Program-made: the position numbers and the translations under genes
Shown here: positions 1 to 33,718 of the stretch, in pieces
How positions within the stretch are numbered: the first letter of the stretch is position 1
Layout of the letters: every line of letters begins with the position of its first letter
The notes under the pieces: generated by a model
Database searches by the model: none
What the model saw: the letters and a program-made list of their open reading frames with translations, nothing else
Told to the model about the DNA's origin: nothing
Origin: Escherichia phage egaa
Length of the DNA: 51,643 nucleotides
Direction: 5' to 3' (one strand)
Sequence record: NC_049852.1

Positions 1-406
1 CAAGTGTTTCATATTCATCTGGCGAGTAGTTCGCTAGGTTTGGTGAGACCTTAAGCATCGACTCAGCAACCTGGCGTTTTGCTTTCGCTACAGCCTTCTC
101 AAGCGCGGCCTTGTTGTACACCCTGCGATTCGGCGCACTAACAATAGCCACATCAAAGTAATTTTCTCCGAAATATTCGCTATCAGGGCCGTAAGGTTTC
201 TTTGAGACTGAAACTCTCCCCTTCTCCGCCACTTCTGGAACGCGCCCCATAATCTGACGGATATATGATCCAGCATTGCTGGCTGACTTCTTGCCCTCCA
301 GGTGCTGCCTTACCCATCTTTCAGGTATCTGGATCGATTCGTGCAATCCAGATGCGAGCGCAATCGCAACCTTGCGAAGCTCATTTGTAAATACAGATTC
401 ACTCAT
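1..406 (-). CDS. hypothetical early protein, N-terminal part (ORF runs off window start; absent from ORF track)
   Basis: ATG at 406-404 preceded by AGGAGG (rc of 411-420); minus frame open to position 1 (about 135 codons, MSESVFTNELRKVAIALASGL...). In frame with the open reading frame at the window end if the sequence is circular. Confidence 0.55.
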   Translation of the reverse strand, partial: MSESVFTNELRKVAIALASGLHESIQIPERWVRQHLEGKKSASNAGSYIRQIMGRVPEVAEKGRVSVSKKPYGPDSEYFGENYFDVAIVSAPNRRVYNKAALEKAVAKAKRQVAESMLKVSPNLANYSPDEYETL

Positions 407-585
407 GCTTTATACCTCCTCGTGACTCAGTGACTGCATTATCATTTACCGCCACCTGGTGTGTCAACTGTTTTTTGTTGTTACTGGCGGTTTTCCGATG
501 TTATCTTTTCAGAACATAACAAGATTCGCGTTTTTTTTCTTATAAATCAATGTTGTTTTTGCGTGTTATCTAAAAAAGCGCGGAT

Positions 586-720
586 ACGCCCCCACCCCCA
601 TATACACACCAACCAATACACAACCACACACAACCACCAAAAATACATCAGACATCAATATGACCACATAACACACACAACAGATAGTAATTTATAGATA
701 CATATAAATAAATAATCCTT
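586..720. repeat. CA-rich, G-depleted low-complexity tract followed by AT-rich segment
   Basis: cccccaccccca...atacacaaccacacacaacc...; almost no G on plus strand; shares 13-mer atacacaaccaca with 22840-22852; approximate coordinates. Confidence 0.6.
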
Positions 721-729
721 ATTTTTTAG

Positions 730-820
730 TATGTTATATGGATTTCTCTTGTTATTTTTTGTTATGCGATTCCACGCCGGAATAACACGCATAACAGCGA
801 TAACAGAAGATAACAGTTGC
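730..820. promoter_or_regulatory. inverted iteron array: 3x TGTTAT then 4x (G)ATAACAG at 9-10 bp spacing
   Basis: tatgTTATatgg..cttgTTATttttttgTTATgcg ... aATAACAcgcATAACAGcgATAACAGaagATAACAGttg seen directly; helical-turn spacing typical of iterons or operators. Confidence 0.5.
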
Positions 821-1000
821 GCTCGCCAGGATTGCCGAAAAGGATGCGAGAGGATCGCGTTTCTCTATCCCCTCCACACAAAAAGTTAATCACTTGATTA
901 AAATTGATCAAACTCAAAGTCTCACAATCCAGGCGATCGCGAATGATTTATTCCTGTTATTCCTGATTAATGGAATAGGTGGAATAATAACCAGTAAGCA

Positions 1001-1045
1001 AATAGCACTTTTTGTTAAAACTGAATTGCCCTGATCGGGTACATT
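1001..1045 (+). promoter_or_regulatory. conserved 20-bp element AATAGCACTTTTTGTTAAAA + 21-nt spacer + TACATT (-10-like); putative early promoter
   Basis: exact 20-mer at 1001-1020; ATG of downstream gene at 1083; 11-bp inverted repeat ctgatcgggta/tacccatcag encloses the -10. Confidence 0.6.
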
Positions 1046-1082
1046 AGACACATCGAAACGAGATACCCATCAGGAGATAGCA

Positions 1083-1592
1083 ATGAACATCAGCAAAACC
1101 ACTTTCAACTTTGCAAAGCGTCACGGTCTGGATCTGACTGTTGAGGATTTTGGCGATGTTCTGCAACTCTGCATTTGGGAAGCGGATAACGATTGCGAGT
1201 GGCTTTGCTCTTATCGTATCAATTACGATTGCTTAACCTGGCACGACAATATCTATCTGCCGCAAGAAGTGAAAGAGGAATTGCCAGCAACCATCAACAA
1301 CGAAGTTTTTTTTGCGCAAAGTCCTGAAGTTTATTGCCGAGGAGATCAAGAAATGATTAGTGAAGTGGATTTTGAACTTGCAGAGGCCCAGGTAAGGGCC
1401 AAAAAGATGGGGTTGCGGATCTTGACGGAAACAGTCGAGTTCCCGTCGATGCCGTTCGCATCATTCCATAAAGTCACCGTATTAAGTCGCAAACGCGAGT
1501 GTAACGCTCTAATACCTGTCGGTGATGATAAACGCATGGCTAAATTCATTAACGAGTCATGTGATGTTCTGAAGGCTGTTAAACACGGTTAA
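1083..1592 (+). CDS. hypothetical early protein (169 aa)
   Basis: ORF track; RBS caGGAGatagcaATG; downstream of promoter element. Confidence 0.7.
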   Translation: MNISKTTFNFAKRHGLDLTVEDFGDVLQLCIWEADNDCEWLCSYRINYDCLTWHDNIYLPQEVKEELPATINNEVFFAQSPEVYCRGDQEMISEVDFELAEAQVRAKKMGLRILTETVEFPSMPFASFHKVTVLSRKRECNALIPVGDDKRMAKFINESCDVLKAVKHG

Positions 1593-1611
1593 CAACAAAG
1601 GGGAAATAAAG

Positions 1612-1878
1612 ATGGCGCGAATCAATGCACCTATTCCAGTTAAGCGCAAAGCACGTTTGCTCAATAACGGGTGTTACGCCCTGCGGCCTGCATTTAAGGA
1701 TCGCACCTTTCCGGTTATCGTTAACGTGTCGCACGTAAGCCGTAGCGGGAATCTGGCCTTTGTTAACGGTGAGGATCTGTCGGCGCTTGGATTCTATGGC
1801 GGTATTTACGGTGAGGCGCTTGGATTCTGGATTAAAGATCCGTTAACTGGCGAGCGCGAAATCGAATTCCTGGACTAA
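1612..1878 (+). CDS. hypothetical early protein (88 aa)
   Basis: ORF track; RBS gGGGAaataaagATG. Confidence 0.65.
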   Translation: MARINAPIPVKRKARLLNNGCYALRPAFKDRTFPVIVNVSHVSRSGNLAFVNGEDLSALGFYGGIYGEALGFWIKDPLTGEREIEFLD

Positions 1879-1922
1879 ATAGCACTTTTTGTTAAAACTC
1901 AATCCTCGCGATCCGATATATT
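1878..1922 (+). promoter_or_regulatory. conserved 20-bp element + 22-nt spacer + TATATT; putative early promoter
   Basis: aatagcactttttgttaaaa at 1878-1897, TATATT about 1917-1922; 9-bp inverted repeat aatcctcgc/gcgaggatt flanks -10 and overlaps RBS. Confidence 0.6.
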
Positions 1923-1955
1923 ACACACATCGACAACGAATGCGAGGATTTGAAA

Positions 1956-2108
1956 ATGGTTACTCTGATTACCTGGGAACACGAAAACAGCCAGCCGGAA
2001 GTGCGCGAATTTGAAACTGTAGCGGCATGTTATAACCTGGCGAAAAATGGCGGATTCTATAAGGCGCAAATTGTTAACGAATTTGGAGTTGTTGACTATG
2101 AGTTCTAA
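1956..2108 (+). CDS. small hypothetical protein (50 aa), not in ORF track
   Basis: ATG 1956 with RBS GAGGAtttgaaaATG, 58 nt after element; MVTLITWEHENSQPEVREFETVAACYNLAKNGGFYKAQIVNEFGVVDYEF; stop overlaps start of next gene. Confidence 0.5.
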   Translation: MVTLITWEHENSQPEVREFETVAACYNLAKNGGFYKAQIVNEFGVVDYEF

Positions 2109-2388
2109 GTTTTACAGCTATACCGATACAGTGGATTTTGAGGGGATACAATTGCCCCTCCCGAACATATACCGCTATATCACGCGTGACGAACGCGGAT
2201 TTATTGAAGCGTGGCGCTCAAAGCCTGTGCGTGATCTTGAGTTTGGCGGCTTCCGCTCTCTTGAGGGTGAGTTGCCGATCTGCTTCGGTCATCAAAGCGG
2301 TGAAAATCTTCCGGTTGTTGCGCGTCAGTATCGCAGACACAAGATCACAAGGGCACTTATCTCTTTAACTGGATCTGTTGTTGAATAG
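2098..2388 (+). CDS. hypothetical early protein (96 aa; internal ATG of track ORF 2047-2388)
   Basis: Track ORF start at 2047 lies inside upstream ORF; in-frame ATG at 2098 has GGAG 8 nt upstream; TAG stop lies inside next promoter element. Confidence 0.55.
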   Translation: MSSKFYSYTDTVDFEGIQLPLPNIYRYITRDERGFIEAWRSKPVRDLEFGGFRSLEGELPICFGHQSGENLPVVARQYRRHKITRALISLTGSVVE

Positions 2389-2428
2389 CACTTTTTGTTA
2401 AAAACGGTATGCGCCTGAATGGTATATT
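2384..2428 (+). promoter_or_regulatory. conserved 20-bp element + 22-nt spacer + TGgTATATT (extended -10-like)
   Basis: aatagcactttttgttaaaa 2384-2403 containing stop TAG 2386-2388; TATATT 2423-2428. Confidence 0.6.
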
Positions 2429-2459
2429 ACATCCATCGACAACGAACGAGGATTTAAAG

Positions 2460-2654
2460 ATGGAAAATCAAGTTGATGTTAAAGTTGTACAGCGTGAAAC
2501 CACTCACGAGAAAGGAATCTTTAAGAAAGGCGCTATCATCACCATTGATCTTGAGGATATGGTTGCGTATCACTCCGGCCTGACATGGAACGTTGTTAAA
2601 CATGGCAATGCTTTCAAACTGCGTGGATTCAATACTTTTATGGAGGTTGTGTAA
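2460..2654 (+). CDS. hypothetical early protein (64 aa)
   Basis: In-frame ATG (codon 18 of track ORF 2409-2654) with RBS GAGGAtttaaagATG; track start lies inside promoter element. Confidence 0.6.
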   Translation: MENQVDVKVVQRETTHEKGIFKKGAIITIDLEDMVAYHSGLTWNVVKHGNAFKLRGFNTFMEVV

Positions 2655-3037
2655 TGGCCTACACAAACAGCGATTTTAAAAACTCAACTGAAACAATCAA
2701 GGCACAACTCATTAAACAACGCGCTTATAGATTCTGGCTTGATTATCATGATCTAAGGAAAGAGATTGATAATATTATCAAGACTGGTAGCGCGTTCTGT
2801 TCTAACAGGACGGTTTGGCGCAATATGAATGCGCAGTACGGCCATGGAAAAATTCGTGTATTTGGTGAGGCTGTTGAAGCGTATGTGTTTAGCGCAACAA
2901 AAGCTGTAAGTTTTAACGTTGTTGGCATTAATCAGATGAGACTAATAATATTTCATAATTCCTGGATGATTCCCGTTTCTAATGATCATTATGGCGGAGA
3001 CGGAAAGCGAGCAAATCGCCATAGCTATTTCAACTGA
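2654..3037 (+). CDS. hypothetical early protein (127 aa)
   Basis: ORF track; start overlaps upstream stop (gtgtaATGg). Confidence 0.6.
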   Translation: MAYTNSDFKNSTETIKAQLIKQRAYRFWLDYHDLRKEIDNIIKTGSAFCSNRTVWRNMNAQYGHGKIRVFGEAVEAYVFSATKAVSFNVVGINQMRLIIFHNSWMIPVSNDHYGGDGKRANRHSYFN

Positions 3038-3079
3038 TAGCACAAATTGCTAAACAATATTTCTCAAACCTGATATAGT
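3037..3079 (+). promoter_or_regulatory. variant element ATAGCACAAATTGCTAAACA + 21-nt spacer + TATAGT
   Basis: variant of the 20-mer (GAATTG/AAATTG subfamily) directly after TGA stop 3035-3037; ATG of next gene at 3110. Confidence 0.5.
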
Positions 3080-3109
3080 TACCACACCAAATATAATGAG
3101 GATTGCATA

Positions 3110-3337
3110 ATGAAAGCCAAAATCACTAACATCATGCACACTGTTGATGCACATCACCGCGTCGCCATTAAGATGGATAAATCTTGCGGAATCAACCAGT
3201 TAACAATCACGAGCGGTAAAGGTGTGTTTGTTGTTGACTCGCATCCAGGTAGTAAAATCCGCAAATATACGCGCGAAGAATTGATTAAACTTCTTGAAGA
3301 GAACAGCATGTTCATTGAAAGTTGGAAGGCTATCTAA
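3110..3337 (+). CDS. hypothetical early protein (75 aa)
   Basis: ORF track; RBS aatGAGGAttgcataATG. Confidence 0.65.
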   Translation: MKAKITNIMHTVDAHHRVAIKMDKSCGINQLTITSGKGVFVVDSHPGSKIRKYTREELIKLLEENSMFIESWKAI

Positions 3338-3346
3338 TTAATAAAC

Positions 3347-3370
3347 GGGAGGTTTCGCCTCCCTTTAAAT
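3347..3370 (+). terminator. putative intrinsic terminator (GGGAGG-loop-CCTCCC + T/A tract)
   Basis: hairpin gggaggtttcgcctccc followed by tttaaat immediately after stop of 3110-3337. Confidence 0.45.
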
Positions 3371-3383
3371 AAAGGTGATAATA

Positions 3384-3497
3384 ATGACGAAATTTCTTGA
3401 TATTTTATTTGGTGTGATGATGAGCCTTGCTGGTCTTTTAGTTGTCACTGCTGTTATTGCTACTATTCTGATTGTTATCAAGGAGCTTATGAAATGA
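3384..3497 (+). CDS. small hydrophobic membrane peptide (37 aa), not in ORF track
   Basis: ATG 3384 after aaaGGtGAtaataATG; MTKFLDILFGVMMSLAGLLVVTAVIATILIVIKELMK; stop overlaps next start (ATGA). Confidence 0.5.
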   Translation: MTKFLDILFGVMMSLAGLLVVTAVIATILIVIKELMK

Positions 3498-3718
3498 GCC
3501 AGGACGGATTTTTTGAGCGACTGCAAAAAGCGGAAGATGCTGGGCTGAATAAAGAGGCTGCTCTTGAAGTTGCATATAAGATCAGGACACTTGATGATGC
3601 GTTGGGTGAAATGGATATGGAGCATGAATGCGGTGCTGCATTTGCAGATCCAACGATGATTGTTAATGATTGCGGCTGCAATTTTGATCCTAACTGTCCG
3701 CGATGCTTTCCGTTTTGA
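3494..3718 (+). CDS. hypothetical Cys-rich protein (74 aa)
   Basis: ORF track; RBS AGGAGcttatgaaATG; C-terminal CGCNFDPNCPRC. Confidence 0.65.
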   Translation: MSQDGFFERLQKAEDAGLNKEAALEVAYKIRTLDDALGEMDMEHECGAAFADPTMIVNDCGCNFDPNCPRCFPF

Positions 3719-3727
3719 GGTGATGAA

Positions 3728-4438
3728 ATGTATAAGGGTTTAATTTTCTCTTTGTTTGATGGATCTGGTAAAGCCGTTAAAGATTGGGCTGATGCTGGAT
3801 ATAAATGCATTTGCTTTAATTACGATGATGCTGATCACGGTGATTACCACTCAGTGCGCATAATCCATGACAATATCTTTTACGTTAACGCGTGGATTGA
3901 TGATCTATTCAAATATACCGCAAAACTTGAAAATTGGGGTAAGCCTGATTTTATTATGGCGTTCCCTCCATGCACTAACCTTGCAAATAGCGGATCTCGC
4001 CATTGGGCTAAAAAACGCATTGAGAATCCATCGTTCCAGGATGAAGCCGCCGACACTTGCAAAATAGCGGCGCAAATTGCTGATTATTTCGGTGTTCCGT
4101 ACATGATAGAGAATCCTGTAGGCAAGCTGTCAACGCTATGGCGCAAGCCTGATTATACGTTCCATCCGTGCGATTATGCTGGCTATCTGCCGGAAGATGA
4201 TAAACATCCCGACTTTCCTGATATTATTCCGGCACGGGATCGGTACTTTAAGAAAACATGCCTTTGGACTGGAAACGGATTTGTTATTCCTCCGCGCGCA
4301 ACAATCATCCCTAAAGATGGCGACAAGGATAATCCTGGTTGGGCCAAAACTGGCGGAAAATCGTCTCGCACAAAGATGATCCGCTCCCTCACACCGCGCG
4401 GTTTTGCTCGCGCCGTCTTTGAAGCAAACGCAAAATAG
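3728..4438 (+). CDS. putative DNA methyltransferase (cytosine-C5-like motifs)
   Basis: FSLFDGSG (FxGxG AdoMet motif), FPPC (Pro-Cys catalytic motif), MIENPVG (ENV-like); short for a C5-MTase, family call by motif only. Confidence 0.5.
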   Translation: MYKGLIFSLFDGSGKAVKDWADAGYKCICFNYDDADHGDYHSVRIIHDNIFYVNAWIDDLFKYTAKLENWGKPDFIMAFPPCTNLANSGSRHWAKKRIENPSFQDEAADTCKIAAQIADYFGVPYMIENPVGKLSTLWRKPDYTFHPCDYAGYLPEDDKHPDFPDIIPARDRYFKKTCLWTGNGFVIPPRATIIPKDGDKDNPGWAKTGGKSSRTKMIRSLTPRGFARAVFEANAK

Positions 4439-4478
4439 CACTTTTTGTTAAAAGCCAGGTGTAAAAGCCTGGCATAAT
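4434..4478 (+). promoter_or_regulatory. conserved 20-bp element + 22-nt spacer + CATAAT
   Basis: aatagcactttttgttaaaa 4434-4453 with TAG stop 4436-4438 inside; GC hairpin gccagg-tgtaaaa-cctggc in spacer. Confidence 0.6.
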
Positions 4479-4509
4479 CACTTCACCGAAACGAAAGGAG
4501 AAATAAACG

Positions 4510-4896
4510 ATGAAAGTTATCTGCAATAAAACCAACGTTTTGATGAGCGGTCGTTATAAAGCTGTATACGAAAAAATTGCTGGTAGCGATGATGTGATCG
4601 AGTTGGAACAATTCCAGGTAAAGAGCATTACAAAGGGTAGCAAGTGGCAAAACGCTGTTGAGTCTGACTATCGTCATATCAAGACAAAAACAATTAAATG
4701 CACATTTGTAGATCACAAGATCCCGTGCAAAAAGCATTTCAAAGAAGGAAAGCGCTACCAGATTGAGCAAGGGCGCGCGCTTGGTGCTGTTGCTGGTTAT
4801 GTTTTTGATGAAGCTGGCGACCGCTGGACGCTATACCGCGAAGAAGTAGGATTTTCCGCTGGTGGCTGTCATTTATTTGAGGCTATGTATAAGTGA
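4510..4896 (+). CDS. hypothetical early protein (128 aa)
   Basis: ORF track; RBS aaAGGAGaaataaacgATG. Confidence 0.7.
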   Translation: MKVICNKTNVLMSGRYKAVYEKIAGSDDVIELEQFQVKSITKGSKWQNAVESDYRHIKTKTIKCTFVDHKIPCKKHFKEGKRYQIEQGRALGAVAGYVFDEAGDRWTLYREEVGFSAGGCHLFEAMYK

Positions 4897-5114
4897 TCAA
4901 GGCTGAATATCGCTATAAGGTGACTCATTCAGCAACAAAAACCTTCAAGCATGGCGATATAGTCAGGCCAATAAAGAAAACGATGGTTGGATGGCTGATT
5001 GGTCTTTCTTACCACAAATCACTTTATTTTGATTTTGCTGATTCCGTAACCGCGCATTGCCATAGCGCAAGGGAACCAGAAAAAATCTTAGTTAGCATAG
5101 AGCGGATCAAATAG
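4893..5114 (+). CDS. hypothetical early protein (73 aa, GTG start overlapping upstream TGA)
   Basis: ORF track; GTGA overlap; TAG stop inside next element. Confidence 0.5.
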   Translation: MIKAEYRYKVTHSATKTFKHGDIVRPIKKTMVGWLIGLSYHKSLYFDFADSVTAHCHSAREPEKILVSIERIK

Positions 5115-5154
5115 CATTTTTTGTTAAATGCGGGTAGCATTGGTGCGGTATTAT
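5109..5154 (+). promoter_or_regulatory. element variant AATAGCATTTTTTGTTAAAT + 22-nt spacer + TATTAT
   Basis: 5109-5128; hairpin gcggtattattgccgc overlaps -10. Confidence 0.55.
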
Positions 5155-5183
5155 TGCCGCATCAAAAAAAGGAGTTATCATCA

Positions 5184-6767
5184 ATGAATTTTTCGTTTGA
5201 AACCAACAAACTAACACCAAAACAAATTATCGAATTAGCTGATGCACAAGGATTGTCTCCGGTGCGCGTGTCCATTCAGGCAAACGGATACCGTCAATCG
5301 TCCAGCTTTTGGGGTGAGGTTAATGATGTTAATAACGGAAATGATCGCTACCCTGTAATTTCTCTTGGCAATGATGTTGATGTTGTTGGTAAGTTGGCGC
5401 GCAACATTGCTCGCTCAGTTCAGTTCCCTGAATCATCGGCATATATGCATTTTATCGGCTGCGTGTCTGCTGCAATGCTTGGACGCTTCACGGTTGAGTA
5501 TCACGGAACGGATCAGCCGACCGCTCTTTATGTTGTCACAAGCCAGCCTCCTTCAACTGGTAAATCTGCCGTTAACAGCCTGGCACTTGCTCCAATGGTT
5601 GCAGAAGTGGAAAGAATTAACGATCAGCGAAAGAAGGAAAGAAAAAAGATTCAGGCAAAGTTGGCAGGTCTTGCAAAAGAGATGAAAAGCGAGCGCTCCG
5701 GCGCTGATATGGAATCTCTATACCAGGAGAAAGAAGATCTGGAAGAAAAACTGGAAAAGATGTGTGACATTGTTTTCCCTGTGTCCGACACCACGCCGGA
5801 AGGACTTGCAAGAATCAACAATCGCCAGGGTAACTTTGCTGTGATTTCAGACGAGGCAACGAGTATTAACAGCCTTTTAGGTCTGACATATGCTAATAGC
5901 GAACGTAAAACCAACAGCGAACTTGTGCTGAAAGCATGGGATCATGGTCATGTTTCTATAGCTCGTGCAAACGCTGACAACAATATGAGTTTTAAAGCTC
6001 TTGGCTGTATGGCGGTGATTGCCCAGGATGAAACAATCAATGCCATCATGGATGCAGGATCGCGCGGTATCGGTGTGAGTGAGCGTTATTTGCTTGTGCG
6101 TGAGGAATCATTTTTAGGTCGTCGAAAGTTTGTTGATGATAACGGTGATTCTACTTATGAGCCTGTTGATGGAGAACTGAAAAGTCAATATTTTAAGCTG
6201 ATCCATAACATCATGAGTGAATCAAACATCCAGCTTAAGATCAGTAAATCAGCAATGCGAGTTCTTAACATGGCTCGTCAGGAGATGGAGCCGCACCTTG
6301 CTGATGGCGGAAAGTATTCGCATACAATGCTGCGCGGTGCTCTTGGCAAAATGGATAAGCAGGTGATCAGGATTGCTTCGGTTTTGCACACTATCCGCAA
6401 CTGGTTTAATCCTGGTGGATACCCTCAGAAGTCGAAAGAGATTGAAGTTGAAACCGTTCAAGAAGCACTGCTGATGTTTAGCGAGTTGAGCAAAACATAC
6501 ATTAGCGCCGCCAACGCTTCTGGCTATGCTGGTGATGATGCTGAAATGGGTAAACTAATCGAGATTATCACTCGACACGGTAAGGCTAACAAGGGGATCT
6601 TGAATGTTCGCGCCATATATGAGGCTGCACGAAAAGTTAAGCCGTTTGTTGGCCAGGCTGGCGTAATGAAGCGTATGGAAACGCAACTGCTGCCGATGCT
6701 TGAAGAAAGAAATTATATTTGTGTGATTAATGGCGTTGTTTTTGTAAATCCAACATTGCTGGGGTAA
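5184..6767 (+). CDS. P-loop NTPase-like early protein (527 aa)
   Basis: In-frame ATG (codon 22 of track ORF) with RBS aaAGGAGttatcatcaATG; Walker-A-like QPPSTGKSA; coiled-coil KKERKKIQAKLAGLAKEMK; function unknown. Confidence 0.65.
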   Translation: MNFSFETNKLTPKQIIELADAQGLSPVRVSIQANGYRQSSSFWGEVNDVNNGNDRYPVISLGNDVDVVGKLARNIARSVQFPESSAYMHFIGCVSAAMLGRFTVEYHGTDQPTALYVVTSQPPSTGKSAVNSLALAPMVAEVERINDQRKKERKKIQAKLAGLAKEMKSERSGADMESLYQEKEDLEEKLEKMCDIVFPVSDTTPEGLARINNRQGNFAVISDEATSINSLLGLTYANSERKTNSELVLKAWDHGHVSIARANADNNMSFKALGCMAVIAQDETINAIMDAGSRGIGVSERYLLVREESFLGRRKFVDDNGDSTYEPVDGELKSQYFKLIHNIMSESNIQLKISKSAMRVLNMARQEMEPHLADGGKYSHTMLRGALGKMDKQVIRIASVLHTIRNWFNPGGYPQKSKEIEVETVQEALLMFSELSKTYISAANASGYAGDDAEMGKLIEIITRHGKANKGILNVRAIYEAARKVKPFVGQAGVMKRMETQLLPMLEERNYICVINGVVFVNPTLLG

Positions 6768-6769
6768 TT

Positions 6770-7162
6770 ATGTTTCTTCTGGATCTGTATCGCTGGTGTG
6801 AGTCATTCGAATGGTTTACGCGTCAACATATAGCAAAATTTATCTTTCAGCATAGAGAATGTGAGCGGCTCGCAAGGGCCGCAGGATTTACGCCGAGAAT
6901 GTTTGCTACTGCCGTTTCAAAAGAGTTTTGCGCAAGAATGATGACCGCTGGTTATCTTGATGGAGTTGGTGGAAAGTTCTGGTGTAAGAAAGGATCCGCA
7001 AATCGCCCTTTCTCGTTTGAACTTTACAGCCTGGAAGGTATGCAAAACGAATGGGTTAGGGATGTTTTACGGATCGGAGAAATGAGCGATGAAGAACTGT
7101 TTACGTCAAATGCTAATAGACAAAATATTGAAGTTCTGCGCCGTAAGTTCAATCTCACATGA
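6770..7162 (+). CDS. hypothetical early protein (130 aa)
   Basis: ORF track; start 3 nt after upstream stop. Confidence 0.6.
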   Translation: MFLLDLYRWCESFEWFTRQHIAKFIFQHRECERLARAAGFTPRMFATAVSKEFCARMMTAGYLDGVGGKFWCKKGSANRPFSFELYSLEGMQNEWVRDVLRIGEMSDEELFTSNANRQNIEVLRRKFNLT

Positions 7163-7283
7163 AGACTTCATGCACGCAATGTTAACGCTAATTCATTCTG
7201 ACATGCGAGCGTTTAACATATCAGAGCATAATTTGTGTGATGAGGACGGCGTTTTGTTGGTTACTGTAAAGCGTATCGAATAG
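7089..7283 (+). CDS. possible overlapping small ORF (64 aa) ending inside promoter element
   Basis: ORF track; overlaps 6770-7162 by 74 nt; GGAG 10 nt upstream; its TAG is the TAG of the next element; true start uncertain. Confidence 0.3.
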   Translation: MKNCLRQMLIDKILKFCAVSSISHEDFMHAMLTLIHSDMRAFNISEHNLCDEDGVLLVTVKRIE

Positions 7284-7323
7284 CACTTTTTGTTAAAACT
7301 CCCGATCTCGTATCGGGTATATT
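7279..7323 (+). promoter_or_regulatory. conserved 20-bp element + 22-nt spacer + TATATT
   Basis: aatagcactttttgttaaaa 7279-7298; hairpin cccgat-ctcgt-atcggg in spacer. Confidence 0.6.
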
Positions 7324-7356
7324 TGTTTCATCGGAACGAATATGAGGATTTTAAAA

Positions 7357-7578
7357 ATGGCTATCAAAGTAACAAAGAAAGAGACAAAAATCATCAATGT
7401 AACTTTTGATGTTTTCAACGACAAAGGAACTGCGACAAGAGAAGATGGCAGCACGTTTGAAATAAATCGTTACGAATACAATGAAATGTTATGGGATATA
7501 AAGAAGAAAGGTGCTTACATTCTTGTCGAGAATGATTATAGCGGAAACAGCTTTCAAGATTTGATGGATGCACTATAA
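7357..7578 (+). CDS. hypothetical early protein (73 aa)
   Basis: In-frame ATG (codon 6 of track ORF 7342-7578) with RBS GAGGAttttaaaaATG. Confidence 0.6.
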   Translation: MAIKVTKKETKIINVTFDVFNDKGTATREDGSTFEINRYEYNEMLWDIKKKGAYILVENDYSGNSFQDLMDAL

Positions 7579-7581
7579 AAC

Positions 7582-7608
7582 AAAGGAGGCGTTAAGCCTC
7601 CTTTTTGT
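7582..7608. terminator. bidirectional intrinsic terminator between convergent genes
   Basis: aaaggaggc-gttaa-gcctccttt followed by tttgttg (plus) and tttgtttt (minus); spanin stop codon lies in the loop. Confidence 0.65.
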
Positions 7609-7990
7609 TGCCTTTGCGGTAGGAAAAGTAAAGCATTGACAAAAGACCGCTAAAAATTGCAGCGCAATAGATTATGGGATCGTACCACTTCCTTTGCTCA
7701 CCCTGCACAACCTGGATTTTATCAGCCTTGATGGTATTGGCCTGAATGGTTGACGTAGTGAAATCCTTCTTGCTGGAAGTGTCCACCTTATCAACCGCAG
7801 ATTCCTTTATTGTAGTTTCCTGTTTTGTGCTGGTGTCCTGCTTTGCGGTAACGCCAACGGTCTGCTTTACGTTCTCCGCTCCTGCCTGTGCTGTGATTTC
7901 CGGCTTACTACCGATTAATCCGGTCAGTGGCGTAACGCTTGAACATCCAGACAAAATAACAGCGATAGCGATTATTGATAACTTTCGCAT
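7592..7990 (-). CDS. unimolecular spanin (u-spanin; outer-membrane lipoprotein with C-terminal transmembrane domain)
   Basis: N-terminal lipobox ...AVILSGCSS, Thr/Lys-rich periplasmic linker, C-terminal hydrophobic helix YCAAIFSGLLSMLYF; directly downstream of endolysin as in phage T1 gp11. Confidence 0.7.
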   Translation of the reverse strand: MRKLSIIAIAVILSGCSSVTPLTGLIGSKPEITAQAGAENVKQTVGVTAKQDTSTKQETTIKESAVDKVDTSSKKDFTTSTIQANTIKADKIQVVQGEQRKWYDPIIYCAAIFSGLLSMLYFSYRKGNKKEA

Positions 7991-7992
7991 AA

Positions 7993-8481
7993 TTACAGAT
8001 CCTTAATGCAATATTTAAATTCCACCGCGCGGCGGTTGCGCAGTCCTTTAGACGTTTCTTTCTTTCCTGTTTTTGGATTGGTGTATTTTGTCCATCTCCA
8101 TAACTGATCGCACGCTTCCATATAACGACCGTTATTAATCAGCTTAAGCATGGTTGAATTTCTAAAAGCTCCAGTTCCAGCATTGTATGTGAATGAATAC
8201 ATTGCTGCGCGCATTGTATCAGGAATGTCAACCTTTACACGCTTATCAACTTCATCCTTTGCGATTTTGATATGCTTCGCCAGTAGTGCATCGCACTCTC
8301 TTTGTGTGTACGTTTTGCCTTGTATTACGTCAGGGCCAGTTATTCCGGCGCAAACCGTCCATACCCCAGCAATATCTTTGTACGGCTTATGTTTTACTCC
8401 TTCTATTTCCTCCAGTAGCGGAGAAGTAAGGGCAAGAGCAACGCCAAAAGCCGCAGCGGTCACTCTTTGTTTTATACTCAT
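7993..8481 (-). CDS. endolysin, T4-lysozyme-like (GH24), probable SAR (signal-anchor-release) type
   Basis: Catalytic E-x8-D-x5-T triad ([16 protein letters not shown]); weakly hydrophobic Ala/Gly-rich N-terminus [18 protein letters not shown]. Confidence 0.8.
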
Positions 8482-8696
8482 TATTTACCTCTGATCTCAA
8501 TAGCTTTCTTAATATCACCGCATTCAAGCGCGTCACGTAGCGCCTTACTATCACGCCAGCGAAGATAAGCGCCCCACATACCAAATGCAGCCATCAAAAC
8601 GAAGCTGGCTATTGCAATAGTTGTTTGACCAGTTACCGCGCCAGTTATTGACGCGCCGCCAGTGCCGGAAGTTGCAGCGTTTAAAAAATCTTTCAT
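8481..8696 (-). CDS. holin (possibly pinholin)
   Basis: 71 aa, hydrophobic core [29 protein letters not shown], charged C-terminus; immediately upstream of endolysin; RBS cAGGAGatctaATG. Confidence 0.65.
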
Positions 8697-8769
8697 GATT
8701 AGATCTCCTGTAAATAAAAGTCAACAATTAATTGATTGTATCCTAACCATTGAACGCACAAAAAGGAAT

Positions 8770-8810
8770 AAAAAAAGGGCAAAGCAAAATGCCTCGCCCA
8801 ATTAAATTGA
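8770..8810 (-). terminator. possible terminator/attenuator upstream of lysis cassette
   Basis: minus strand gggcgaggc...gctttgccc imperfect hairpin followed by TTTTTTT; approximate. Confidence 0.35.
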
Positions 8811-8827
8811 TGATTTATATTGATATT

Positions 8828-9958
8828 TTAATAATTAAAAGTTCGATCTGCCATTTCTGGATAATGCATAAATCGCCCGACCTCGCCGTATTCTTTATCG
8901 TAAACAATAACAGCCGCACGGCGACGAGAACGCCATCCACCGCGCGCAGCATATGCATCTTTTGCCGCCATAGTGCTATGCACTTCAACAATGCCCAGGC
9001 TTGTTTCAGTTACTGTCTGATGATGCCAGTGCCCTACGTGAGCATACATCATTTTTGAATTGCCGAAATCTTCGCGCCAGTCTGCCGCGCACATCATGAG
9101 CAATGTTTCAGGTTTGCGGATAGTATGCCCGTGATGGTATGCCAGGAACGTTTTGCCATATTGTGTGTGATGAACTACTCGCGGAGACACATCAACATGC
9201 ACTCGCGGCTCATTCTCATATGCTGCCGCCATTGCTGCGCGCAACCAGATCATGCCGCTTTGGTCGTGGTTGCCTTCAATGATCTGAATCTCGACGTTTT
9301 TGTGTTTTGATAACAGCTTTGTGATTGCTCTACGCACTGACCGGATGGCAACATAAACAAGTTTTGCATATCGACTATCTTGGTCTAATACGTGACCGCT
9401 TGCAGGCGTTACCGCTTCCAGTCCGTCGCTGTGAAGCATATCACCACCAATCAGCAAAACAGCCTTCTCACTATCCGGCGCGCACTGGATGGAATAATCA
9501 ATGAAATTATTCATTACGCGCTCTGCTGTTGCTGTATCCCAATTCTCGCCGCATTCATGCTTATGCGCCATTGCGCCCAGGTGCATATCAAAGATCGGAT
9601 ACAGTGATAACGTCTCGCTATAATCCTTTTGTGATTCTGGTTGCGGATCAAGTCGCGGAACTTCTTCGCTAAATGCATCCATAGCGGCCTGCATTAATGC
9701 TTCTAACTGTTCGCGGTCCTTGCTTGTCTTAATCCATGTCATAACCACATTGCCATCTTGATCAATTAGCTTTGATTCTCCAGTAACACCAAAACCAGGT
9801 GATCCGATGGTTGTAACTTTACCTTGCTTTGCTAATCGTGCCGCGCGGCGCTCAATGCTGCGAACGTTCATACCATACTCATTAGCGATCTGCTTATATG
9901 TCTTTCCCTGCTTGCGCTCATTGATAAATTGTTCATCTGTGATTTTGATTTGATTCAT
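8828..9958 (-). CDS. HTH domain - calcineurin-like metallophosphoesterase fusion protein
   Basis: N-terminal helix-turn-helix (KTYKQIANEYGMNVRSIERRAARL); phosphoesterase motifs FDMHLG (DxH), GGDMLHSDG (GDxxH), GNHD; ATG at 9958 with AAGGAG upstream (track start is TTG at 9961). Confidence 0.6.
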   Translation of the reverse strand: MNQIKITDEQFINERKQGKTYKQIANEYGMNVRSIERRAARLAKQGKVTTIGSPGFGVTGESKLIDQDGNVVMTWIKTSKDREQLEALMQAAMDAFSEEVPRLDPQPESQKDYSETLSLYPIFDMHLGAMAHKHECGENWDTATAERVMNNFIDYSIQCAPDSEKAVLLIGGDMLHSDGLEAVTPASGHVLDQDSRYAKLVYVAIRSVRRAITKLLSKHKNVEIQIIEGNHDQSGMIWLRAAMAAAYENEPRVHVDVSPRVVHHTQYGKTFLAYHHGHTIRKPETLLMMCAADWREDFGNSKMMYAHVGHWHHQTVTETSLGIVEVHSTMAAKDAYAARGGWRSRRRAAVIVYDKEYGEVGRFMHYPEMADRTFNY

Positions 9959-10057
9959 CAAAAAATTCTCCTTATCTCATTATGACAACGTATACAATAG
10001 AGATCGCCATCATAACAGGTAATGGCAAAAGTAACAAACGCCACATGATAATAATCC

Positions 10058-10300
10058 TCATTTGTAGTATTTGCGCGGCTCGCGAATTTTCGCCATAGCC
10101 TCTTTGACATCAATTTTTGTTGGTATTGCTGGTACGCGATGCATCTTGCGCGGGCGTTCATTGAGAAATGTCATTTTGTCGCCGCTGATAATGCTTATGT
10201 CAGCAATATCAAAATATTTCGCTATCCTGGATATGTCTTCTGCGATCCCGCATTCCTTTGCGTGATCCCATACAGCCTGCCTACCTTGTTCAACCTTCAT
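10058..10300 (-). CDS. hypothetical protein (80 aa)
   Basis: In-frame ATG (codon 8 of track ORF 10058-10321, whose start is TTG); GGAGG 14 nt upstream; overlaps stop of upstream small ORF. Confidence 0.55.
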   Translation of the reverse strand: MKVEQGRQAVWDHAKECGIAEDISRIAKYFDIADISIISGDKMTFLNERPRKMHRVPAIPTKIDVKEAMAKIREPRKYYK

Positions 10301-10469
10301 GCTTATAATATGCCTCCGCAAATGCTAATGGGTAGTGACCATATGCTACGCGAAGTAGAATCATTGCAGCACCCCAATCAAGATGCATATTGTTTTTCGT
10401 TCCGCCTTTTACCGCCTCGCGTGCGGTTTGTTGTGCCTGATCAAATGCTTTTTTGCTGTATACTACCAT
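10290..10469 (-). CDS. small hypothetical protein (59 aa), not in ORF track
   Basis: ATG 10469 with RBS GAGGAaataaaaATG, 58 nt downstream of promoter element; MVVYSKKAFDQAQQTAREAVKGG... Confidence 0.5.
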   Translation of the reverse strand: MVVYSKKAFDQAQQTAREAVKGGTKNNMHLDWGAAMILLRVAYGHYPLAFAEAYYKHEG

Positions 10470-10500
10470 TTTTATTTCCTCATGTTCGTTTCGATAAAAT

Positions 10501-10546
10501 AATTATGCCCGACACAAGGCCGGGCGTTTTAACAAAAAGTGCTATT
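10501..10546 (-). promoter_or_regulatory. conserved 20-bp element (minus orientation) + 23-nt spacer + ATAATT
   Basis: rc of 10527-10546 = aatagcactttttgttaaaa; contains TAG stop of 10542-10781; hairpin gcccggc-cttgtgt-cgggc in spacer; leader CGAAACGAA...GAGGA. Confidence 0.6.
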
Positions 10547-10781
10547 TTGACGCGGATTCGTAAAACTCTTGCAAGTCTTTACCGATCTGCTCATGCCATT
10601 TTTCAAGCGGTAGTTTTCTTGTTTCCTCAAAGCTCATGTCAAGCGCGCTTGTAAACTCCCACGGATCGCAACCTAATAGCGGTTTTATGAACTCGTTTTT
10701 ATCAAGCGCCTCGCAAACCATAGCGCGAAATAACAACCACTCTCCAGTTTCATTTAAATAAACGCTTCTTTCTTTCTGCAT
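10542..10781 (-). CDS. hypothetical protein (79 aa)
   Basis: In-frame ATG (codon 117 of track ORF 10542-11129) with RBS AAGCGGAGttaatatcATG; longer track ORF overlaps dam. Confidence 0.55.
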   Translation of the reverse strand: MQKERSVYLNETGEWLLFRAMVCEALDKNEFIKPLLGCDPWEFTSALDMSFEETRKLPLEKWHEQIGKDLQEFYESASK

Positions 10782-10785
10782 GATA

Positions 10786-11487
10786 TTAACTCCGCTTTCT
10801 TGCTCGACGCTCTGCCACCGAAGGGCAAATGTCGCTGATTTTAACGTATCGCGTTTTCTGCTGCTCACCTTCTTTAAGTTCTCGCATGATGAAAATAACG
10901 CTGCCTTTGTTGTTGCCCTGCACTGGTTTACCTGTAAGCGCGGAAGTAAACGCCAGGCGTCCGGTGCGGGAATATTCTGTTCCGTCCTCCTGGTAAACTT
11001 CTCCAGTGATCCAGATGATTTCCGCTGCGCGCTGTTGCGCTTCATAAAACCATCCTGTTGATGTGTCGCAAGGTAACAGTATGTCGATCTGGTTGTTGTG
11101 CTCCATTTGCTCAATCGCCTTCTTAACAAATGGAGTAATATTGCTGTACGGTGGATTAAGCCAGATATGCTTATTACTACCCCACCAACGCTTTAAGCAA
11201 TTTGTTTCCTTGCTGTAGAATTTTTCACATACAGCATTTTCTTTGCTCGCCGCCGCGTCGATGTCATAATCACCGTATTCGCTTTCCATCCATTCGACAA
11301 GCTCAGACGGAGTAGACCACAAATCGCGCACAATGTCCGGCGTATTGCTGCCGTTATAGCGGTTGCCAGTCACTTTGAAATATTGATTTGGTTTAACAGC
11401 CTGGTAATGACCACCAGTAGCAAGAGCATTGCCAATGAATGTTTCGCGTTCTATTTGTTCAAATGTCACTTCGGTTTCTTTGCTCAT
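10786..11487 (-). CDS. dam: DNA N6-adenine methyltransferase (phage Dam-like)
   Basis: NPPY catalytic motif (WLNPPYSNITPF) of amino-MTases; position next to nuclease/helicase as in T1-like phages. Confidence 0.8.
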   Translation of the reverse strand: MSKETEVTFEQIERETFIGNALATGGHYQAVKPNQYFKVTGNRYNGSNTPDIVRDLWSTPSELVEWMESEYGDYDIDAAASKENAVCEKFYSKETNCLKRWWGSNKHIWLNPPYSNITPFVKKAIEQMEHNNQIDILLPCDTSTGWFYEAQQRAAEIIWITGEVYQEDGTEYSRTGRLAFTSALTGKPVQGNNKGSVIFIMRELKEGEQQKTRYVKISDICPSVAERRARKRS

Positions 11488-11520
11488 TTCTTAATTACCT
11501 GTTGCTTGTTGAACTGGTGT

Positions 11521-11566
11521 TATTATGGCGCAATCCTTCGCGCCTGTTTTAACAAAAAGTGCTATT
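11521..11566 (-). promoter_or_regulatory. conserved 20-bp element (minus) + 23-nt spacer + ATAATA
   Basis: rc of 11547-11566 exact 20-mer incl. TAG stop of VRR-NUC gene; hairpin ggcgc-gaaggatt-gcgcc; ATG of dam 60 nt downstream. Confidence 0.6.
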
Positions 11567-11981
11567 TCATCATGTATTCTACAGCGATCATGAATTGCTT
11601 ATATCCGTATGTTACTGCGGCGAATCCGCCAAGCTCACGCACACGGCGTAAGAAGGCTTTTTGCTCCTTGCTGACTGGTGAAGCCTTACCCTTGCCAGAC
11701 TTATTGACGCGCTTCATCTCAATAGCTGCGAAAGGGTAGCGGCCTTTTAATCCAATCAGGATGATAAAATCACTTACTCCCTTAACGAGTCCGGCTTGCT
11801 GATCCATCATTGCGGTGGCGATCCCCTTGTCGCCCTCGTTTTTCGTATGCCATGCCAGCAATTCAGGATGAGCATAAGTTAACCATTGAAACCCCCCGAT
11901 CTGGTGCGATTCCTCTTTCAGCGTATCTGTCGGATCTCTTTCGTAAAACTCCAGATAATCGCCTTTATCAGTCATTGCCAT
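11562..11981 (-). CDS. VRR-NUC domain nuclease (PD-(D/E)XK fold)
   Basis: SDFIILIG ... AAIEMKR (D ... E-x-K) motif arrangement; adjacent to helicase. Confidence 0.6.
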   Translation of the reverse strand: MAMTDKGDYLEFYERDPTDTLKEESHQIGGFQWLTYAHPELLAWHTKNEGDKGIATAMMDQQAGLVKGVSDFIILIGLKGRYPFAAIEMKRVNKSGKGKASPVSKEQKAFLRRVRELGGFAAVTYGYKQFMIAVEYMMK

Positions 11982-14007
11982 AATTAAATTCCTTCTTGTA
12001 CAAATTATCTTCTCCCTTGCTAGTCTTGCGGTGAGTCACGCGCGATGGTGGCATGATGTGATTCACATATTGCATTATTTTTCGTGCATTACGATAGCTC
12101 GCCACCATGCCAGCAACGCGGCGATCTGGTATGTGCTTAAGAGCAACGCCTCGCCATTTTGCGCGGCAAATTTGGCTTTCAGATTCAGGGAAAAATATCT
12201 CTCTCGCCCTAAAAGTGTCTGCGCCATCGTAAAGCTCATAATTAAATATTATCCCTTTCTGGTTTTTCGTCATGTCAACAGAGAAAGATTGCACCTTGAA
12301 CCAGTCGTTTTTTGTGTAGTGCTTTCCGCTCAACTTCTCGTTAGGGTCAATCAATGACATGTCGCAATGTCTGCATACCCTGGCCGCAATATCATTTTTC
12401 GTTCCACAACCGCGCTGAATAATCTTTTTAGTGCGCGGGTCAATCTGATCATCACATGTCCTGAATTTAAAGAACCACTCGCATCTGTTGCCGTTTTCGT
12501 CTACGTGCATACAACGACGAGCATAATAGCTATTAAGAGTTCCGCAAACAGGACAAGGCTTCGGATCTTTACCGTTCCTGAATCGCTTCTGATGTTGCGC
12601 CTGTTCCAGTATCGGATCAAAATAAAGCTCACCTAACTCGTCCATCGTTCCTGAAAAATCCATAACCAGGTGATCATCTTTCTTGAAGCCTTGTTCCTTA
12701 TGCCATTTCTTAAGAAGTCGCATTCCGCGTCCTAAAAGCTGAATCAGCAAAGTTAGCGATCCAATCTTACGCAGAATAACAGACGTATCCCAAAACGGCA
12801 CGTTAACGCCAGTAGTTAGCGCCTGAACCTGGAAGATGTACTTTACCTTCCCTTCGTATGCTTCCCTCAACCACTCCTTGCGCTGGTTGTCGCCAGTCTT
12901 ACCAGTAATGATCCTGTAAGTCGTTCCAGGTGGCAATGCCGCCGCTGCCTCTTTGCAATGCCTTTCTCCTGCACATGTCACAAGTACGCCGTTACGGTTT
13001 TTACAGATCTCGTGAACTTTCGCCATGATGCGCTTTGTCATGGTCGCTTCTTCATGAATTTTTTGTTCCATCCTGCGAAGCGTTTTAGCGTCAAAGTCTG
13101 CGACGCCATCCTCGCTGGATGCCTCAAACTCTGAAAGGTCATACCCTAGATCGCCAACGTCGCCAAAATTTGTTGGCACAACAGAACCGAATTTGATCAG
13201 GTAGTTGGTGTCAATATTAGTAACCTGTTCACGCCAGAATCCTTTCTGTTTTTTGTCTTCTACCAGGATCGGGACTACTCCGCGAAACTCCGAACCAGTC
13301 ATACCAAAGATGCGCAGTTCATGACCATATGCTTTCCTGCAACGTCGCATCATTTCCATGATAATAACAGTGTATTGCGTGCGGCCTGTTCCCTCCATTG
13401 GTAAGCCATCCTCACCAATCATGAACTCTTCGCATTCGTTATCGCTCGTTATGTCATAATATGGATTTGGTACTTTTTCGCCTTTCTTCGTTGTCATTTG
13501 TAAAAATGATTCGTCTTTCTCTATTGCGTCGGCAAGGTCTTCCCAATCCACCTGGTGACATTCATCAATCCCGATAACGTGAGGAACATAGTCGCCAAGC
13601 GCTTTAAACAGTCCATTAACTACAGTTCCCTCAGAACCAACAACGATCGGAAAGTATGCGCTTTTTGTCTTCAGTCCTGCACAATAGATGGAGTTCGGCA
13701 CACCAAGATTTGTTATCTCTTCAGAATCCTGATCCACAATCTCAGCCTGGCGAGCAAGGACCATCATTTTCAAGCCCATTTTACGGCACTGGTGAGCAAC
13801 CATTGCAAACATCAATGTTTTGCCAGCCGATACGGACGCTTTAACAAAGAATGGGTGCTCATAATTTTTCATACGCTTTGCGATCTCAGCGTATGCAACG
13901 CACTGGTAAGGGTAAGGCACAATCTCGCCAACAGTGAATCGCTCCTGAATGGATTTAATTACCGCTTCACCAAGTGCTGATATTTGTTTTTCAATGTTTG
14001 GAATCAT
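11968..14007 (-). CDS. SF2 DEAD/DExH-box helicase with C-terminal zinc ribbon
   Basis: Walker A SVSAGKTLM, DECH box (GIDECHQV), C-terminal CPVCG...CRHCD; start moved to in-frame ATG 14007 (codon 23; aaAGGttttagaATG) because track start is TTG inside the promoter element. Confidence 0.8.
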   Translation of the reverse strand: MIPNIEKQISALGEAVIKSIQERFTVGEIVPYPYQCVAYAEIAKRMKNYEHPFFVKASVSAGKTLMFAMVAHQCRKMGLKMMVLARQAEIVDQDSEEITNLGVPNSIYCAGLKTKSAYFPIVVGSEGTVVNGLFKALGDYVPHVIGIDECHQVDWEDLADAIEKDESFLQMTTKKGEKVPNPYYDITSDNECEEFMIGEDGLPMEGTGRTQYTVIIMEMMRRCRKAYGHELRIFGMTGSEFRGVVPILVEDKKQKGFWREQVTNIDTNYLIKFGSVVPTNFGDVGDLGYDLSEFEASSEDGVADFDAKTLRRMEQKIHEEATMTKRIMAKVHEICKNRNGVLVTCAGERHCKEAAAALPPGTTYRIITGKTGDNQRKEWLREAYEGKVKYIFQVQALTTGVNVPFWDTSVILRKIGSLTLLIQLLGRGMRLLKKWHKEQGFKKDDHLVMDFSGTMDELGELYFDPILEQAQHQKRFRNGKDPKPCPVCGTLNSYYARRCMHVDENGNRCEWFFKFRTCDDQIDPRTKKIIQRGCGTKNDIAARVCRHCDMSLIDPNEKLSGKHYTKNDWFKVQSFSVDMTKNQKGIIFNYELYDGADTFRAREIFFPESESQICRAKWRGVALKHIPDRRVAGMVASYRNARKIMQYVNHIMPPSRVTHRKTSKGEDNLYKKEFNYGND

Positions 14008-14040
14008 TCTAAAACCTTTGAGTAATGCCATTTGGCGTGT

Positions 14041-14084
14041 ATAATACACAATCATTAAATCATCGTTTAACAAAAAATGCTATT
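14041..14084 (-). promoter_or_regulatory. element variant (minus) AATAGCATTTTTTGTTAAA + 21-nt spacer + TATTAT; overlaps a plus-strand TATAAT
   Basis: rc of 14066-14084; minus -10 TATTAT = rc of 14041-14046, plus TATAAT at 14039-14044: back-to-back divergent promoters for helicase and 14097 gene. Confidence 0.5.
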
Positions 14085-14096
14085 GGAGAATGAATA

Positions 14097-14570: not shown

Positions 14571-14624
14571 AAACAATGCCTGGCATGATGTTATCATCTG
14601 TCAGGCTTTTTGTTTGAGGTGTAT

Positions 14625-15599: not shown

Positions 15600-15656
15600 G
15601 CCTTAGCAAATGCTATTATCTGCATTGACATTAACATGCAACATGGGAGAAAACGC

Positions 15657-33705: not shown

Positions 33706-33718
33706 TTCTTTCTCCTTG

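Follow-up and report, generated by a model that had tools for sequence, protein, structure and literature searches.

Stop codons of upstream genes within a direct repeat that heads putative promoter cassettes in T1-like phages

Why should the stop codon of one gene lie inside an element that seems to serve the next? Positions 1878-2403 of Escherichia phage egaa (NC_049852.1; Drexlerviridae, Tempevirinae, Hanrivervirus) raise this question. The whole stretch of 51,643 nt that was analysed, hereafter the window, is the complete 51.6-kb genome of this T1-like siphophage. An earlier note had claimed that amber stops of upstream genes are embedded there, and at other sites of the window, in a repeated promoter element. 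The element is a 21-nt direct repeat (DR, here also called the box) with the consensus (R)AATAGCACnnnTTGyTAAAA. The flagged segment is a single small expression module, in which repeat copies at 1877-1897 and 2383-2403 (both +) surround two small genes, 1956-2108 and 2098-2388 (+). Our analysis confirmed this overlap of stop codons and box, which greatly exceeds chance and holds throughout the family.

The box itself is abundant and well defined. AATAGCAC occurs 15 times in the window against 1.97 expected, and, if as many as 3 mismatches are tolerated, 17 sites match the 18-mer TAGCACTTTTTGTTAAAA where 0.11 would be expected. A relaxed pattern found 20 full copies, all of which fit aaATAGCACnnnTTGnTAAAA, the consensus given for phage TLS, and a position table made from 78 copies in 4 genomes yielded that same consensus. 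The core AGCAC is invariant, and TAGCA-N5-TGyTA forms a near-dyad. Sixteen copies are followed by a co-oriented start codon 70-98 nt after the TAG, mostly at 72-77 nt; in Klebsiella phage NJR15 the box is identical and the gaps are about 72 nt long. Besides the full copies there are two degenerate ones (21561 and 15615, both -), a vestigial one (41753, -) and a half repeat (27821, -). Searches for known RNA families and tRNAs gave 0 Rfam and 0 ARAGORN matches.

The element of the window is the DR that was described in 2024 for phage TLS (PMC11447400, in Phage), the sole description of it that we found in the literature searched. TLS was reported to carry 21 copies of aaATAGCACnnnTTGnTAAAA that are oriented with transcription and precede start codons by about 76 nt, and the repeat was also noted in T1, Rtp and Rogue1. 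A stoperator, an enhancer site and a UP-like element were put forward as candidate functions, and the repeats were treated as lying between genes (PMC11447400). The window agrees with TLS in consensus, number of copies (about 20), direction, distance to the start and the T/G/A variants of the spacer. Added here are upstream stops in all three frames, a fixed spacing to a -10 hexamer, stem-loops and an association with breakpoints. In the literature searched we did not find the provision of stops in three frames, the near-exclusive placement of amber codons inside the box, the C-termini imposed by it or the fixed promoter geometry.

Stop codon usage was tabulated for 84 genes mapped onto the window from the RefSeq annotations of phages herni and G29-2, a gene set preferred to that of a simple gene finder, which recovered 66 genes. 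The T1-like character of the window is borne out by its 93-99% identity, over long stretches, to the Hanrivervirus phages pSf-1, herni and G29-2. These genes end in TAA 49 times, in TGA 27 times and in TAG 8 times, and every TAG lies within AATAGCAC. Seven of the amber stops fall in full copies of the DR (at 2386, 4436, 5112, 10544, 11564, 47284 and 48586), and the eighth, that of the terminase large subunit (TerL) gene, in a vestigial copy. When an open reading frame (ORF) at 7089-7283 (+) is included, all 9 TAG stops of about 85 genes are within AATAGCAC, and none of the other 76 genes ends in TAG.

On the plus strand, the TAG of the copy at 2383-2403 (2386-2388) ends gene 2098-2388 (phrog_1972), that of the copy at 4433-4453 (4436-4438) ends a Dcm-type DNA methyltransferase gene (3728-4438), that of a TAGCAT variant at 5109-5129 (5112-5114) ends gene 4893-5114, and that of the copy at 7278-7298 (7281-7283) ends the 64-aa ORF 7089-7283. 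On the minus strand, the copy at 10527-10547 provides TAG 10544-10542 for gene 10542-10781, and the copy at 11547-11567 provides TAG 11564-11562 for a VRR-NUC gene (11562-11981), a junction also present in T1 and TLS. A copy with a GAA spacer and a perfect dyad, TAGCA-N5-TGCTA (47267-47287, -), contains the stop 47284-47282 of a deoxynucleoside monophosphate (dNMP)-kinase-like gene (47282-47872). The copy at 48569-48589 (-) contains the stop 48586-48584 of gene 48584-48745, and the homology to herni and SECphi27 ends exactly there. The vestigial copy AAATAGCACGAATCGACAAAC (41736-41756, -) holds TAG 41753-41751, the stop of TerL, and is followed by TATAAT and a terminator.

It could be argued that this pattern arises by chance or from ORF calling, with spurious ORFs running on to the first stop in the repeat. 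The ends of ORFs are set by the sequence, and hence any ORF that enters the box in frame 0 must end at the TAG; moreover, ORF 7089-7283 has no annotation in RefSeq herni and G29-2, and the ORF upstream of the copy at 1003 is broken. However, all nine TAG-ended ORFs, including those of the methyltransferase, the VRR-NUC protein, the dNMP-kinase-like protein and TerL, match PHROG families end to end. ORF 7089-7283, which shares 74 nt, read in another frame, with the 3' end of its upstream neighbour, belongs with phrog_9539 (E = 3e-23), and tblastn showed its conservation in 692 phage records, at 35-75% amino acid identity. The pattern also recurs in T1, TLS, pSf-1, NJR15 and 58 loci. These data refute an artefact, to which we give virtually no credence. 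The eight amber codons listed in the earlier note are thus stops of real genes, seven of which are annotated in herni or G29-2, and the TerL stop at 41751-3 is a ninth case.

Stops next to the TAG were also found. With offsets counted from the T of TAG, the co-oriented upstream genes of the window end at 0 seven times (eight with ORF 7089-7283), at -3 twice, at -4 twice and at +13 once. Gene 1612-1878 ends with TAA 1876-1878, formed with the 5' AA of the copy at 1877-1897 (offset -4), and gene 50860-51045 likewise with TAA 50862-50860 (-4) at the copy 50841-50861 (-), the 3' boundary of a two-gene module shared with phage JMPW1. Two further stops abut the TAG at -3: TGA 3035-3037 of gene 2654-3037, at an AAA-spacer variant (3035-3055, +), and TAA 45941-45939 of gene 45939-46226, at the copy 45921-45941 (-), a recurrent homology breakpoint. 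These are the four stops that had been placed immediately 5' of the element. The earlier list was nevertheless incomplete. It left out the +13 stop of a regulator gene, TAA 14568-14570 within TTGCTAAAA of a degenerate copy (AAGCAC; 14552-14572, +), whose protein consequently has the box-encoded tail ESTNC. It also left out the stop of a recE-like gene (21563-22624), TAA 21565-21563 at TAAACAGCAC (-4), where the degenerate copy CAGCACAAATAGCTAAAC (21544-21564, -) is followed by TATAAT. Missing too were two copies whose upstream stops lie farther off, namely 49786-49806 (-; copy 49803), with the upstream stop 72 nt away and a homology break at 49807 in 5 relatives, and 51304-51324 (-; copy 51321), where ORF 51329-51577 ends 10 nt before the TAG and homology breaks at 51324/5 in 6 relatives. 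The last omission was the broken ORF at the copy 1000-1020 (+; copy 1003). Here the TAG is not a stop, and in the third frame the last fragment of the upstream ORF continues across the box until TGA 1032-1034. We dropped a read-through in the third frame at this copy, since the upstream ORF has in-frame stops. The segment 726-1034 (+), a homologue of herni gp31, carries three of them and is either a pseudogene or reflects a doubtful annotation in herni.

Taken together, the box supplies TAG in frame 0, TAA in frame +1 (offset +13) and, from its 5' AA plus a preceding T, TAA in frame +2 (offset -4), and therefore an upstream ORF in any frame can be terminated at or in it. Of the early genes of the window, the majority stop within the box or abut it. 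Similar offsets were found in relatives: 0 (five times), -3 and -4 (twice each), -1, +6 and +13 in T1; 0 (six times), +13 (four times), -4 (three times) and -5 in TLS; and 0 (eight times), -3, -4 (twice) and +13 in pSf-1. We then scored the family independently of annotation, in 255 unique DR contexts from 58 T1-like loci, taking an upstream frame as reaching the box if it was open for at least 45 codons. The loci were supplied by a pattern scan of viral contigs, in which single matches were mostly due to chance and several copies occurred only on contigs of about 50 kb. An ORF reached the box in 189 of the 255 DRs, with stops at 0 (107), +13 (26), -4 (22), -3 (16), +6 (8) and -1 (6); the 189 split 131/27/31 among the three frames, without correction for shared ancestry. 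The base at -4 was T in 25 of the 31 frame-2 cases. As had been proposed, C-termini are constrained: the residue before the TAG was K or E in 91 of 107 cases, and genes ended at +13 have box-encoded xSTxC tails such as NSTNC and NSTFC.

What, then, holds the TAG in place? In 55 of 56 DRs that no ORF reaches, the T at position 0 was kept, and TAG was also kept in the DRs of divergent regions and in antisense DRs. In the window, for example, the copy at 14065-14085 (-) lies in a divergent region upstream of a helicase gene (11968-14007) and retains its TAG without a co-oriented upstream gene. The copy at 23050-23070 (+), upstream of a cor-like gene (23126-23353), likewise has no co-oriented upstream gene. 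Hence the TAG is conserved through a constraint at the DNA level and not for its role as a stop, which is opportunistic.

The DNA downstream of the box links it to a putative promoter. Of the 20 copies, 18 are followed by a TATAAT-like -10 hexamer (at least 4 bits) at a distance of 18-19 nt from the 18-mer, compared with 2.5% of random sites. The -10 is partly of the extended type: 15 of the 20 copies have G at -14 and 6 have TG, the T at -15 being weakly conserved. The leader motif CATCGAnACGA stands at exactly +48 in 7 copies, and 70-80 nt separate the TAG from the ATG. In the flagged module, the copy at 1877-1897 is followed by TATATT (1917-1922), the leader CATCGACAACGA (1928-1939), the Shine-Dalgarno (SD) sequence GAGGA (1944-1948) and ATG 1956, and the copy at 2383-2403 by TGgTATATT (2420-2428), a leader (2434-2445), an SD sequence (2448-2452) and ATG 2460. 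DR-containing gaps cluster at 69-77 nt, and thus the cassette fills the whole gap; the statement that coding end and element are fused was therefore confirmed. We would place the transcription start some 49 nt downstream of the T in TAG, which puts the box at about -52 to -32, with the near-dyad centred near -42 from this predicted start. The name promoter element thus fits in part: the fixed -10 spacing speaks for it, but the box forms the upstream part of a putative promoter region and not its core, and promoter activity of the cassette is a computational prediction.

Familiar promoter classes did not account for the box. A canonical sigma70 promoter was rejected, as 22 nt separate TTGyTA from the -10 and the sites were uncalled; canonical promoters showed no excess in any case (24 against 31 expected). 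Extended -10 and class II activator-dependent sigma70 promoters of E. coli, the latter with an activator site centred near -41.5, come closer, in that the cassettes have no usable -35, G at -14 in 15 of 20, TG in 6 of 20 and a near-dyad at about -42 from the predicted start, but differ by the weakly conserved T at -15. The UP element has an A/T-only consensus at -57 to -38 and was set aside, given a box at about -52 to -32 with an invariant AGCAC core. A sigma54 promoter, TGGCAC-N5-TTGC with a 12-nt distance from GG to GC, was rejected too, as TAGCAC-N3-TTGC is 2 nt too short and has AG in place of GG.

Stem-loops are a further part of the cassette. The 40 nt after the box fold with a minimum free energy of -8 kcal/mol or lower in 13 of 20 copies, compared with 20% of random 40-mers, and z is below -2 in 11 of 20. 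The stems abut or enclose the -10; GCCAGG..CCTGGC abuts it in the spacer of the copy at 4433-4453, and a stem-loop encloses it at 5109-5129. A few spacer hairpins were called terminator-like, on either strand. Alternatively, the box might be a 3'-end module acting in RNA, in which amber context and stem-loop set termination, 3' ends or processing and the TAG itself is selected. Such a role would agree with the strong preference for frame 0 (107 of 189 ORFs ending at the TAG), with the lack of amber stops outside the box in the window, and with stem-loops within 19 nt, some of them terminator-like in either orientation. It does not explain why the TAG is kept where no ORF extends to the box (55 of 56 DRs), or in copies that lie antisense or in divergent regions. 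Furthermore, the stem-loop varies in position and is absent in 7 of 20 copies, the fixed spacing is to the -10 and not to the stem, a proper U-tract in the sense direction is missing from most hairpins, and amber stops do occur outside boxes in T1 (1 of 6), TLS (5 of 12) and pSf-1 (5 of 14). We therefore regard an RNA-level module as quite improbable.

The box would be bound either by host RNA polymerase alone or by a Cro-like regulator at the dyad near -42. A conserved helix-turn-helix (HTH) 'transcriptional regulator' gene (phrog_2856; 14097-14570, +) is encoded between two boxes; its HTH assignment comes from a sub-threshold Pfam match and from Cro proteins in PDB (E = 2e-5 and 3e-4), and its product may be considered a candidate box-binding protein. 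Co-variation of box and regulator was ruled out as a test, as the box is unchanged in NJR15. The best canonical sigma70-like matches in the scanned region 1-14700, where such promoters are few, were 438-467 (-), TTGACA-18-GATAAT, which heads a long early operon, and 14018-14045 (+), TTGAGT-16-TATAAT, which precedes the regulator gene. The two appear to be the equivalents of TLS P01 and P57.

A regulator of this type leads to another possibility, raised by the TLS authors (PMC11447400), that the box is mainly an operator at which a phage repressor or roadblock blocks or silences transcription coming from upstream, the stop codon being there as a gene-end marker. L5 stoperators, as Brown et al. 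(1997) are cited in PMC11447400, are bound by the lysogeny repressor gp71, and the prophage is silenced. The box resembles them as an asymmetric short site in many copies, oriented with transcription and located in short intergenic gaps. Its near-dyad core, the conserved Cro-like gene between two boxes with a canonical sigma70-like promoter of its own, and the copies antisense to the late operon, which suit a binding site, are also in favour of an operator. However, the fixed 18-19 nt to a -10-like hexamer is a feature of the box and not of stoperators, and neither this spacing nor the constant distance to the start codon would be needed by a pure roadblock. T1-like phages are, to our knowledge, virulent, and we know of no lysogeny repressor in them. 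We thus consider a role mainly as operator unlikely, while noting that it is compatible with a promoter, since an operator that overlaps the -35 can regulate one.

The antisense copies deserve a description of their own. Two full copies are antisense to the late operon, one between the major tail gene and a chaperone gene (33717-33737, +) and one upstream of the major head gene (37477-37497, +), and a degenerate copy (about 15600-15620, copy 15615, -) is antisense to late/structural genes. T1 has antisense copies at the same three positions (-18849, -15085 and +34903), and TLS has one at one of them (DR7). In the copy at 33720, TAGCAT stands at the usual 19-nt spacing and is followed by the terminator of the major tail gene; this copy may be the source of a short antisense RNA, or a regulator site.

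The earlier note had also taken the fused ends to imply tight module boundaries. We compiled 149 alignment ends between the window and nine relatives and counted an end as at a box if it fell from -8 to +20 of the TAG. Seventeen of the 149 ends were at boxes (1.1% expected), at sites 999, 1878, 48586, 49807, 50842 and 51324, and in a database-wide search most right-hand ends lay at box edges (45937-43, 47286, 48586, 49806, 50860/1 and 51324-30). The two-gene module 50842-51330 has a box on each side. The same module occurs at 4001-4490 of Tunavirus JMPW1, likewise flanked by two boxes but in other genomic surroundings; there it adjoins a DNA methyltransferase gene, whose own stop is the +13 TAA of the flanking repeat, and in the window it is located in the other early arm. 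At 45876-45943 the cassette is 98.5% identical to that of TLS over 68 bp, with flanks at about 70%. Recombination within the box would be consistent with these patterns. Concerted evolution between cassette copies was rejected: identity is 88-100% between orthologous cassettes but 35-75% between paralogous ones, with no sign of conversion beyond the box. The box edges thus often coincide with homology breaks, as expected of module boundaries; compared with other gene ends, however, the excess is only some 2-fold and the numbers are small.

Collectively, our results are probably best explained by a family-wide box at the head of a regulatory cassette of about 75 bp, with the stops of upstream genes falling in a box that is constrained as DNA. 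The cassette would run from the box through a spacer of 18-19 nt, often with a GC-rich stem-loop, to G(-14)-n-TATAAT-like -10, and further through the predicted start, a short leader CAUCGAnACGA and GAGGA to the ATG. The sequence of the box would be fixed for a DNA-level reason and would contain TAG and TAA by happenstance, and selection for a compact genome would have stripped nearly all private 3' spacer from the upstream genes. The TAG in frame 0 may be favoured because it adds no residues and fixes only the last codon, to RAA (K or E). As the box, at about 20 sites, both closes one gene and opens the expression unit that follows, its edges may act as junctions for module exchange, by analogy with the promoter-early stem-loop (PeSL) cassettes of T4-like phages.

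Several observations weigh against this explanation. The frame-0 bias could mean that the TAG itself is selected as a terminator. There is no -35 at 16-18 nt, and a consensus promoter scan called none of the DR sites; nor did we find transcription-start or reporter data for T1-like phages in the literature searched. Three conserved copies antisense to late genes are left unexplained by a simple forward promoter, and the stem-loop is not found in seven copies. With regard to exchange, unique breakpoints among close relatives only were at 5 of 21 boxes, 9 of 70 other stops and 8 of 85 starts, which is about 2-fold and not significant. Paralogous cassettes are alike only little beyond the box (35-75% identity), so that recombination, if it occurs, would have about 21 bp to rely on.

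The closest analogue of the cassette in its putative function is the PeSL of T4-like myoviruses, which contains the stop of the upstream gene in an AT-rich part, a promoter, a stem-loop, and SD and ATG (Arbiol 2010, PMC2839356). Terminator function, promoter activity and mini-circles were demonstrated experimentally for PeSLs (PMC2839356; Comeau 2014, PMC4122927), and they mediate gene shuffling (PMC2839356; PMC4122927). Like a PeSL, the element of the window is a composite cassette with the upstream stop inside and SD and ATG at its 3' end, and it is repeated many times among small early genes; endpoints of indels and replacements may likewise fall at cassettes. In PeSLs the stem-loop occupies the space from -35 to -10 or covers the -10, and the stems of the window abut or enclose the -10. 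There are also differences. The two share no sequence homology: the box is a GC-containing 21-mer, whereas PeSL stems are G(n)/C(n) tracts beside consensus promoters. PeSLs have both -35 and -10 at consensus, whereas the cassette of the T1 family has a -10-like hexamer in 18 of 20 copies and no -35 at 16-18 nt. Finally, PeSLs belong to T4-like myoviruses and the box to a siphovirus of about 50 kb, in which the cassette is predicted from sequence.

A few features of the window remain to be described. The half repeat AAATAGCACAAAAGGTG (27804-27824, -) immediately precedes the start of the gene for tail protein J and is the equivalent of TLS DR8. At 14552-14610 (+), the degenerate DR in which the regulator gene ends gives way to a long hairpin that has a T-run, GCCTGGCATGAT..ATCATCTGTCAGGCTTTTT, and includes a -10-like TATCAT; the region looks like a combined terminator and promoter ahead of the primase gene. 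Records named as phages of Campylobacter, Streptococcus and Pseudomonas match the window at 1-8000 and 43850-51643 with about 85-92% identity, and are probably T1-like contaminants or carry misassigned hosts.

In summary, the fusion of gene ends with the box is genome economy around a repeat already described, with a modular flavour like that of PeSLs. Overlap of a stop with the next promoter is an ordinary economy of small phages, already drawn for PeSLs; it overturns nothing and calls for no new mechanism. Our data give the DR a fixed -10 partner, a predicted start and a near-dyad at about -42, and they point to a candidate binding protein. For the annotation of T1-like phages, an amber codon inside AATAGCAC marks a genuine gene end, an expression cassette can be recognised by a gap of about 72 nt, and small genes such as 7089-7283 are missed in current annotations. 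For phage engineering, box edges offer natural junctions for gene swaps. As a tentative possibility, to which we give only a minor share of our belief, the box would combine an operator of the Cro-like regulator, acting as a switch at about -42 of a promoter class of the T1 family, with a three-frame terminator and a 21-bp recombination joint. If this were true, each early gene would be a portable expression cassette, and the box would be the siphovirus counterpart of PeSLs, in the form of a junction recognised by a protein and unchanged throughout the family.

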